Assembly (NCBI GenBank): GCA_021786945.1
Contig: JAJYMK010000003.1
Coordinates: 103,105 to 149,298 of the forward strand
Source of the DNA: a bacterium
GTDB taxonomy: Bacteria; Patescibacteriota; Minisyncoccia; UBA6257; 02-FULL-45-10c
DNA length: 46,194 nucleotides
Direction: 5' to 3'
Shown here piece by piece: positions 32,500 through 33,285 of this stretch. The position numbers were made by a program, and so were the translations under genes. Every line of letters begins with the position of its first letter. The first letter of the stretch is position 1. The notes beneath the pieces are model-generated. The model made no database searches. It worked only from the letters and a program-made list of their open reading frames with translations, and was not told the origin of the DNA.

Positions 32500-33285
32500 A
32501 TGAAAATATTAGCAACAGAACAATTTGAGAATAAGTTAAAATCTCAAGATGAATTTTACAAAAAAGCTTTTTATCAAGTTTTGAATAGTATCAAAAACTT
32601 AGATGCAAAATCCGTTGCTGGTTATTTGAGTATTCATTTTGTATTGGGCTCAGTGCAATTTTATAAAATTGGAAATTTAAGGCTATTCTTGAATTTTACA
32701 CAGGACGAACATAAAAATACCGTGCTCGTTTTCCTTGATTTAACTCTTAGTATTGCACCAATAAACACAAATAGAAATCCAAGGTTTAACAACCTAATAA
32801 ATCCAAGGTTTAACAACCTAATAAATCCAAGGTTTAACAATCTAATAAATCCAAGGTTTAACAACCTAATAAATCCAAGGTTTAACAACCTAATAAATCC
32901 AAGGTTTAACAACCTAATAAATCCAAGGTTTAACAACCTAATAAATCCAAGGTTTAACAACCTAATAAACCCAAGGTTTAACAACCTAATAAACCCAAGG
33001 TTTAACAACCTAATAAACCCAAGGTTTAATCCGAATTTTGTTGGTTTTTACTGCTACGACTTAAACTCTACCCCATACGAATTTGTTATACCGGAGTCTA
33101 ATCAACATATGTTATTATTTTTTGATTTTAGCGGAGAACAAACAAATTACGCCATAAAACACTCACAAAATGGTTACGTTGTGTTTAATTTAGACGGCGA
33201 GTGGATTGGTCATCTAGAATCAGATTCTAGAGATGGGTTTAATTATTTTGATTTAAATAATGAATGGATTGGATTTATAAAATAA
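32500..33285 (+). CDS. Unknown 261-aa protein: RelE/ParE-like N-domain, (NPRFNNLI)x10 octapeptide repeat tract, and a C-domain with 'EWIG' repeats.
   Basis: The ATG lies 2 nt after the upstream stop. The N-domain 'FENKLKSQDEFYKKAFYQVLNSI...FYKIGNLRLFLNFTQDEHKNTVLVFLDL' follows the RelE/ParE pattern (xYKI..yRLvy....d..vvvfl.v). The C-domain has 'FNLDGEWIGH' and 'FDLNNEWIGF'. Confidence 0.7.
   Translation: MKILATEQFENKLKSQDEFYKKAFYQVLNSIKNLDAKSVAGYLSIHFVLGSVQFYKIGNLRLFLNFTQDEHKNTVLVFLDLTLSIAPINTNRNPRFNNLINPRFNNLINPRFNNLINPRFNNLINPRFNNLINPRFNNLINPRFNNLINPRFNNLINPRFNNLINPRFNNLINPRFNPNFVGFYCYDLNSTPYEFVIPESNQHMLLFFDFSGEQTNYAIKHSQNGYVVFNLDGEWIGHLESDSRDGFNYFDLNNEWIGFIK
32776..33030 (+). repeat. 24-bp tandem repeat, 10 full units plus a 15-bp partial unit, in frame.
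   Basis: The unit is aatccaaggtttaacaacctaata, starting at 32776 and every 24 nt up to 33016. The only variants are aatcta in unit 3 and aaaccc in the last units. Confidence 0.97.

Follow-up and report, generated by a model that had tools for sequence, protein, structure and literature searches.

The open reading frame (ORF) at 32500-33285 of the Patescibacteriota contig JAJYMK010000003.1, within the 46,194-nt stretch analysed here (the window), encodes a protein in which a domain with a predicted RelE/ParE fold is fused through perfect octapeptide repeats to a C-terminal domain of β hairpins. This fusion is half of a strict two-gene cassette. Its obligatory partner, encoded directly upstream, is a small protein with two transmembrane helices (2-TM), and in the window the pair sits inside a Type I restriction-modification (R-M) operon. 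We propose, with a probability of about 0.5, that the fusion is the predicted cytoplasmic half of a toxin-antitoxin (TA)-like or abortive-infection defence cassette. As far as the libraries and the literature at hand show, neither the architecture nor the cassette has been described. The original prediction, made from the sequence alone, had singled out the three-part architecture as novel, and this was borne out: no model in Pfam, NCBIfam, PADLOC or PHROGs matches the fusion protein significantly, and the profile searches place the whole protein in no known non-toxin family. It described the three-part architecture correctly but overlooked the partner.

A word-indexed search returned 23 homologues of the fusion, and a profile built on the last two repeats and the C-domain retrieved 337 clusters at 50% identity (E ≤ 0.001), of which 211 reach E ≤ 1e-10. 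When a second family alignment was used as profile in the word-indexed search, it gave five proteins only. These homologues establish the ORF as a real gene. A perfect 24-bp repeat can hold reading frames open, as it does for the antisense ORF at 32661-33008 (- strand, 115 amino acids (aa), LNLGFIRL repeats), a mechanical by-product of the tandem array and no gene. That the fusion ORF is itself a spurious product of tandem DNA has a negligible probability, however, and is refuted by the conservation of its N- and C-domains in hundreds of clusters. In addition, the repeats of relatives diverge at the protein level, and AlphaFold2, run on the 23-sequence alignment, gave a confident three-part model with a mean predicted local distance difference test score (pLDDT) of 90.7.

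The ten perfect NPRFNNLI units and two EWIG motifs of the original prediction were confirmed by Tandem Repeats Finder and by translation. The repeat tract (32775-33029) has a 24-bp period, 10.6 copies and 98% matches with no indels. It translates into exactly ten NPRFNNLI units (aa 93-172) followed by the partial unit NPRFNPNF, and two synonymous sites are the sole DNA differences among the units. Across the family the repeat follows the pattern N-P-x-x-N-x-x-[ILV], with the N and P columns invariant in the alignment, and arrays range from 3 to about 20 units. Locus L001 (8001-8792) encodes the identical ten units, with two synonymous 24-bp versions taking turns in its DNA so that the period there is 48 bp, and in locus L002 (1905-2693) NPRFNS[VL]I alternates with NPSFNSTI, also with a 48-bp DNA period. 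The different periods, 24 bp in the window versus 48 bp in these two relatives, indicate that the arrays were homogenized independently. A period of 16 aa hints that one turn of the structure may consist of two octapeptides. Family members P0003 and P0007 carry 11 and 3 units, respectively, and are otherwise identical outside the array, which reflects either real copy-number variation or assembly collapse.

In the AlphaFold2 model the repeat region has a pLDDT of 93-95, and DSSP assigns it occasional three-residue helical turns and no regular strands. The central repeats of ice-nucleation proteins form a β-solenoid with an 8/16-residue period. The arrays studied here resemble them in their tandem octapeptides with conserved inward-type positions and in the 48-bp (16-aa) period of L001 and L002, but the sequences are not similar, the modelled repeats contain no strands by DSSP, and no solenoid is among the Foldseek matches.

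The start of the upstream partner was placed at ATG 32120 because its homologues begin at the equivalent methionine. A hydropathy scan locates its two hydrophobic helices at aa 10-41 and 52-72. They are followed by a conserved tail of about 55 aa, predicted to be cytoplasmic, with the motif F-x-D-[DEN]-x-Y-C-x-A-Y...C-L-P-E. No significant domain was assigned to the partner by Pfam, NCBIfam, PADLOC or PHROGs, and the residual matches are noise from transmembrane composition. A SLATT assignment was rejected (SLATT_4 matched 2 of 16 members, at E 0.014 and 15 bits where the cut-off is 55; no Pfam SLATT match). A partner profile run against PDB sequences gave only a non-significant similarity, of the tail (aa 68-118) to the N-terminal 50 residues of angiogenin (E about 0.04; DDRYCESIMRRRGL versus DDEYCKAYMRKQCL), which was deemed to be due to chance.

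The pairing holds in both directions. The 2-TM gene lies directly upstream of the fusion in all ten independent loci examined that carry the RelE-type form: the window, L001, L002, L003, L022 (a metagenome-assembled genome (MAG) of Acetobacter), L040 (a Thermodesulfobacteriota MAG in which the gene is split), L127, L214, L216 and L217. The two genes are separated by 2 nt in the window and overlap by 4 bp in most relatives. Conversely, when metagenome loci were recovered via the partner motif, the fusion lay directly downstream in 27 of 29; the other two were unscored, one because its contig ends at the 2-TM gene and one because the 2-TM ORF had been dropped by the ORF filter. The 2-TM gene is absent from about 40 family loci that do not have the RelE-like domain.

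The N-domain model consists, by DSSP, of a strand (residues 2-5), three helices (7-14, 18-31 and 36-42) and three strands (52-57, 60-68 and 74-82), and the hydropathy scan detected no hydrophobic segment or signal peptide in it. The top Foldseek match in the PDB was Pyrococcus horikoshii RelE (1wmi; probability 1.00, TM-score to the target 0.65, rmsd 3.1 Å over 85 columns). It was followed by RelE of Thermus thermophilus (2khe) and Methanocaldococcus jannaschii (3bpq) by ParE structures (6x0a, 5ceg) and by Mycobacterium tuberculosis RelE1 and HP0894, with probabilities of 0.82-1.0; the entries matched include 9g12 and 1z8m. The Foldseek E-values are modest (best 0.018). These matches can be traced to this particular N-domain, because the model of a family member with a different N-domain (class B, below) gives no RelE matches. 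Profile searches gave weak matches of the same kind: of 23 family members, 6 are recognized by Pfam ParE_toxin (PF05016; best E 1.5e-4), a 50-sequence N-domain profile run against PDB sequences finds PfiT (9w3a), a toxin of the ParE family, at E 0.006, with RelE3 reaching E 0.34, and one homologue carries the Joint Genome Institute (JGI) annotation RelE. Together these results support the earlier assignment of the first 85 residues, and the model indicates that the N-domain has a RelE/ParE fold.

Activity is a separate matter: the fold claim of the original prediction is supported, and a role as toxin is putative. Across the N-domains D80 is the sole invariant residue (95/95), followed by K12 (89/94) and F9 (78/94); R61 is present in 66 of 95, and position 56 is R or K in the same proportion (66/95). 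These last two positions alone recall RelE. In a comparison with Escherichia coli RelE, hhalign aligned R61 of the window protein with RelE R61, in a register that puts non-basic residues opposite K52 and K54. The domain gives way to the repeats near aa 88 and therefore lacks equivalents of R81 and Y87, in agreement with the original remark that the C-terminal catalytic R/Y residues were not obvious. Canonical RelE mRNA-interferase chemistry was therefore rejected: of K52, K54, R61, R81 and Y87, R61 alone aligns. When the N-domain profile was compared with single RelE/ParE sequences, hhalign aligned the GYRLVY strand alone (Prob 4.9) or nothing.

These observations bear on the main rival to our proposal, a classical type II-like TA system in which the N-domain acts as a toxin, either as an mRNA interferase or by poisoning gyrase, the 2-TM protein is a membrane-anchored antitoxin, and the repeats and β domain are a modulator. 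The cassette conforms to the type II layout of two adjacent, co-oriented genes with the small partner upstream, and its gene order is that of relBE and parDE, where the genes are adjacent or overlap. With type II toxins (PF05016; 1wmi, 3bpq, 6x0a, 9w3a) it shares the N-domain fold, supported by Foldseek, ParE_toxin in relatives, PfiT and the JGI annotation, as well as residence in TA and defence islands. Moreover, K12, R/K56, R61 and D80 could make up an active site. We nevertheless consider this arrangement unlikely. The window domain is below the Pfam threshold, has no C-terminal catalytic segment with R81 and Y87, has non-basic residues at the K52 and K54 positions in the hhalign register, and is fused to octapeptides and a β domain. 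Its partner is a membrane protein for which the profile searches found neither a DNA-binding nor a known antitoxin domain. Furthermore, the sister architectures described below have their effector upstream (HEPN or a trypsin-like peptidase), which puts the repeat protein in the position of the regulator.

The C-domain is modelled as eight β strands, spanning residues 183-260, arranged in four hairpins. The last two hairpins carry the EWIG motifs, DGEWIGH (aa 232-238) and NNEWIGF (aa 253-259), and the family consensus has the hairpin G[YF]xxFDxxNxWIG twice at the C-terminus with two weaker copies ahead of it. The C-domain profile gave no match below E 0.77 to PDB sequences. Foldseek matched the C-domain of the window model weakly (probability ≤0.47) to propeller-blade fragments, β-prism lectins and OspA sheets, and a search of viral folds in BFVD gave no informative match. 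The C-domain of the class-B model matched potempin E (probability 0.89, TM-score 0.44-0.47), PliC (0.80) and Omp19 (0.66), which are small β-barrel inhibitors of proteases or lysozyme; given the trypsin-like neighbours of relatives, we regard these inhibitor-like matches as a lead. The Pfam model PF21784 (4-fold beta flower), whose domain occurs in the ‘Cernunnos’ integron defence gene, was considered and rejected (E 0.36 and 11.7 bits versus a cut-off of 25 for the window protein; 4 of 23 relatives, best E 0.05). We leave the C-domain as a predicted eight-stranded hairpin meander with no assigned fold class.

The original prediction also missed that the core conserved throughout the family is not the RelE-like domain but the repeat array with the C-domain; the family is found in many bacterial phyla and some archaeal MAGs. 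Among the 115 members whose N-terminal extension is 60 aa or longer, drawn from the 150 best representatives plus the first homologue set, 95 have the RelE-like N-domain. About ten members or clusters (class B) carry a different N-domain of about 130 aa with no Pfam assignment. In the single class-B genome region examined (P0021; L005 382-1556, L006), a HEPN gene (Pfam E 1.6e-5, above the gathering score) overlaps or directly precedes the repeat + β gene. The AlphaFold2 model of class B (pLDDT 84.7) shows weak N-domain matches to chains of HEPN-MNT complexes (7ae2_B, 7ae9_E-H; probability 0.5-0.63), probably the α/β MNT chains, and no nucleotidyltransferase motif is evident in this domain. The likeness to HEPN-MNT pairs thus belongs to the class-B relatives (L005/L006) and not to the window gene, and the MNT-like assignment is weak.

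Short forms, which consist of repeats and C-domain alone, directly follow trypsin-like peptidases (L010, L013, L008, L212/L213) and precede a 1018-aa Metallophos-nSTAND nucleoside triphosphatase (NTPase) in L007 and L212/L213; in L025 a short form adjoins a weakly matching Metallophos_2 protein. At L212 (114-4347; also L213 and L007) three genes form an operon that is probably a separate conflict system sharing the module: they encode a 209-aa trypsin-like serine peptidase with a GNSGCP motif, a 175-aa repeat + β protein and the Metallophos-nSTAND NTPase. The P0018 cluster comprises 180 sequences. Exported versions occur in Bacteroidota (Puia, Chitinophagaceae, Oceanihabitans and others), where a signal peptide or a lipoprotein signal precedes the module and tandem paralogues are frequent; they lie in conserved synteny with malate dehydrogenase (mdh), a family-9 heptosyltransferase, a thioredoxin-like gene or ftsZ/ftsA (L030, L049, L051, L067, L093, L211 and others).

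The exported forms suggest a reading outside biological conflict, in which the repeat + β part is a general binding or scaffold module, lectin- or inhibitor-like, the RelE-type pair is its membrane-tethered housekeeping version, and the defence neighbours reflect hitch-hiking on mobile islands. The housekeeping synteny in Bacteroidota and the weak fold matches to lectins, propeller blades and small β-barrel inhibitors speak for it. However, the RelE-type cassette is patchily distributed across phyla and tightly linked to defence, TA and recombinase genes, the operon has a lower GC content than the rest of the window, and the effectors found alongside the sister forms are HEPN, trypsin-like peptidase and STAND proteins. 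We consider this reading quite improbable. A broader claim, which we put forward only tentatively, is that the repeat + β module is a new, widespread sensor/regulator of prokaryotic conflict systems. It would be plugged into the 2-TM protein via a catalytically degenerate RelE-fold adaptor, into HEPN via an MNT-like adaptor, and into trypsin-like peptidases and Metallophos-STAND NTPases; in this genome, a Type I R-M operon would have it built in as a suicide guard of second line.

The R-M operon of the window runs in the order hsdM, 2-TM gene, fusion, hsdS, a 234-aa ORF and hsdR, with gaps of 1-10 nt throughout and of 2-7 nt around the cassette pair (Table 1). The likely ATG of hsdS (33288) lies 2 nt past the fusion stop, and the alignment with HsdS of L214 starts there, at MKINWQ. 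No terminator-like site was found between hsdM and hsdR, and promoter-like matches in the operon region were not above shuffled expectation. Given this and the tight packing, we treat the six genes as one operon, in which the cassette pair is probably co-transcribed with the R-M genes. The GC content is 33.8% for the operon (30655-37438), 29.8% for the fusion gene and 37.8% for the whole window, and the low operon value is consistent with horizontal acquisition. The window itself is chromosomal, containing DnaG, GroEL and tRNA genes, and L001 lies on a 1.19-Mb chromosome.

The cassette occupies an hsdM|hsdS junction in four loci, the window, L001, L214 and L338, which include two distant Type I systems. 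HsdM of L001 is 73% identical to that of the window, which argues that cassette and R-M genes were co-inherited in these two loci. At L214 the order is HTH-hsdR-hsdM-cassette-hsdS (HTH, helix-turn-helix), and compared with the window HsdM and HsdS are 37% and 26% identical versus 51-67% and 62% for the cassette proteins. At L338 the C-terminus of a Type I methyltransferase is directly ahead of the cassette. L002, L003, L022, L040, L127, L216, L217 and most of the metagenome loci have no adjacent R-M genes. The original R-M setting is confirmed by the Pfam matches of HsdM, HsdS and HsdR, but the cassette also occurs outside such operons: R-M embedding is recurrent and not obligatory.

This distribution matters for a PrrC-like guard function, in which the HsdM/HsdS complex would keep the cassette inactive until a phage anti-restriction protein disables the complex. 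The E. coli prr locus is a precedent for an accessory suicide gene inside a Type I R-M locus. In Streptococcus pneumoniae, the tvr locus has the toxin-antitoxin genes tvrAT between hsdM and hsdR (PMC6265443). Like the cassette, these loci hold extra conflict-type genes inside and co-oriented with hsdM, hsdS and hsdR. Their proteins are unrelated to those of the cassette, PrrC being an ABC-ATPase anticodon nuclease and TvrAT a Phd-Doc pair. The exact placement between hsdM and hsdS in four loci, in two distantly related R-M systems with differing gene order, also favours a guard. Unlike the prrC and tvrAT loci, however, the cassette is also found outside R-M loci, and its functional coupling to R-M is putative. 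Because most cassettes have no adjacent R-M genes, any coupling would be facultative and a guard role cannot be general; we judge it a poor candidate for the function of the cassette as a whole, and somewhat less probable than a general binding module.

Outside R-M operons, the neighbours of the cassette include DpdA/DpdB, PtuA/AriA/Old-type AAA_15/21 ATPases, a ThsB-like TIR protein and SIR2_2, as well as DNA methylases, serine recombinases, ORF6N, Gp49 with an HTH protein, PhdYefM, NYN and NucS nucleases. This is the signature of defence islands or the mobilome.

The proposed TA-like or abortive-infection cassette could work as follows. The RelE-fold domain would dock onto the cytoplasmic tail of the 2-TM partner, much as a toxin holds its antitoxin; we infer this contact because N-domain and 2-TM protein co-occur in either direction and are both missing in the other architectures. 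The repeats and β domain would serve as the sensing or regulatory module, since they are the constant part of the family (>300 clusters) and elsewhere occur together with trypsin-like peptidases, HEPN and a Metallophos-STAND NTPase. The complex would be altered by a trigger, for example phage infection, which would release a growth-arresting activity. We favour the 2-TM protein as the putative effector, with membrane damage as the predicted outcome, by analogy with the sister cassettes, whose upstream HEPN or trypsin-like gene encodes the effector. Alternatively, the RelE-fold domain might poison translation or gyrase.

Several observations weigh against this proposal. The link between the N-domain and the 2-TM tail is drawn from co-occurrence. 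The fusion protein of the window does not match ParE_toxin at E ≤ 1 and has no significant Pfam match at all. The invariant D80 and the conserved basic residues K12, R61 and R/K56 leave room for a non-canonical active site, or might form a structural salt bridge. The association with defence islands was read from neighbour lists with no formal background control, and the exported Bacteroidota forms beside housekeeping genes imply that the module itself is not defence-specific. The family has no PADLOC or PHROGs model (fusion, 2-TM partner and 234-aa ORF match no PADLOC-DB 2.0 family at E ≤ 1) and no copy in the scanned viral contigs: among the 120 DNA-pattern matches listed from IMG/VR there is no gene for a protein of the family, and nothing was found in two protein scans.

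The defence protein CapRel(SJ46) is a fused toxin-sensor. The fusion described here resembles it in that one chain combines a toxin-fold domain with a C-terminal module that could sense a phage trigger. It differs in that the folds are others, a second, membrane protein is needed, and toxicity is putative.

Table 1. Coordinates of the cassette, its domains and the surrounding Type I R-M genes in the window.
Feature	Position	Strand	Details
hsdM, first operon gene	30655..32112	+	Pfam N6_Mtase E 6.6e-64, HsdM_N E 2.6e-10
2-TM partner gene, about 125 aa	32120..32497	+	Mechanical start TTG 32096; probable start ATG 32120
Fusion gene (predicted RelE/ParE-fold domain, octapeptide repeats, four-hairpin β domain)	32500..33285	+	261 aa, ATG start
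N-domain, aa 1 to about 88	32500..32763	+	Strand, three helices, three strands (predicted); DSSP, Foldseek, profiles
Repeat array, 10 x NPRFNNLI + NPRFNPNF, aa 93-180	32776..33039	+	Tandem Repeats Finder, unit list
C-domain, aa 181-261	33040..33282	+	Eight β strands, four hairpins (predicted); DSSP on model, consensus
hsdS	33288..34424	+	Pfam Methylase_S E 7e-25; mechanical start 33264, likely ATG 33288
Uncharacterized ORF, 234 aa (229 aa from ATG 34426)	34411..35115	+	One N-terminal transmembrane helix, aa 10-35
hsdR	35126..37438	+	Pfam ResIII E 2.5e-37, EcoEI_R_C, HSDR_N_2

The 234-aa ORF between hsdS and hsdR has no match in Pfam, NCBIfam, PADLOC or PHROGs. It occupies the position of PrrC in the E. 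coli prr locus, and L001 has a DUF3800 gene in its place. Downstream of hsdR, at a distance of 7 nt, follows an ORF of 161 aa (37445-37930, + strand) whose residues 1-30 form a hydrophobic helix and which belongs to no significant family. GroEL of the window (20751-22397) shares 73-75% identity with its counterparts in two MAGs, one unclassified and one labelled Candidatus Saccharibacteria, versus about 55% with GroEL of other Patescibacteria, which points to a small-genome CPR bacterium as the probable host.

If the cassette is indeed a defence or TA module, the RelE/ParE fold would here have taken on a new use, as a fused and probably non-catalytic domain that adapts the protein to a membrane partner. 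The repeat + β part would be a new module, represented by more than 300 clusters in bacteria and some archaea and outside every domain library, and the hsdM|hsdS junction of Type I R-M operons would harbour another embedded second-line system. The near-perfect, independently homogenized arrays offer a natural test of functional tuning of spacer length. The host is probably a small-genome, Patescibacteria-type organism, a group whose defence repertoires are poorly known.

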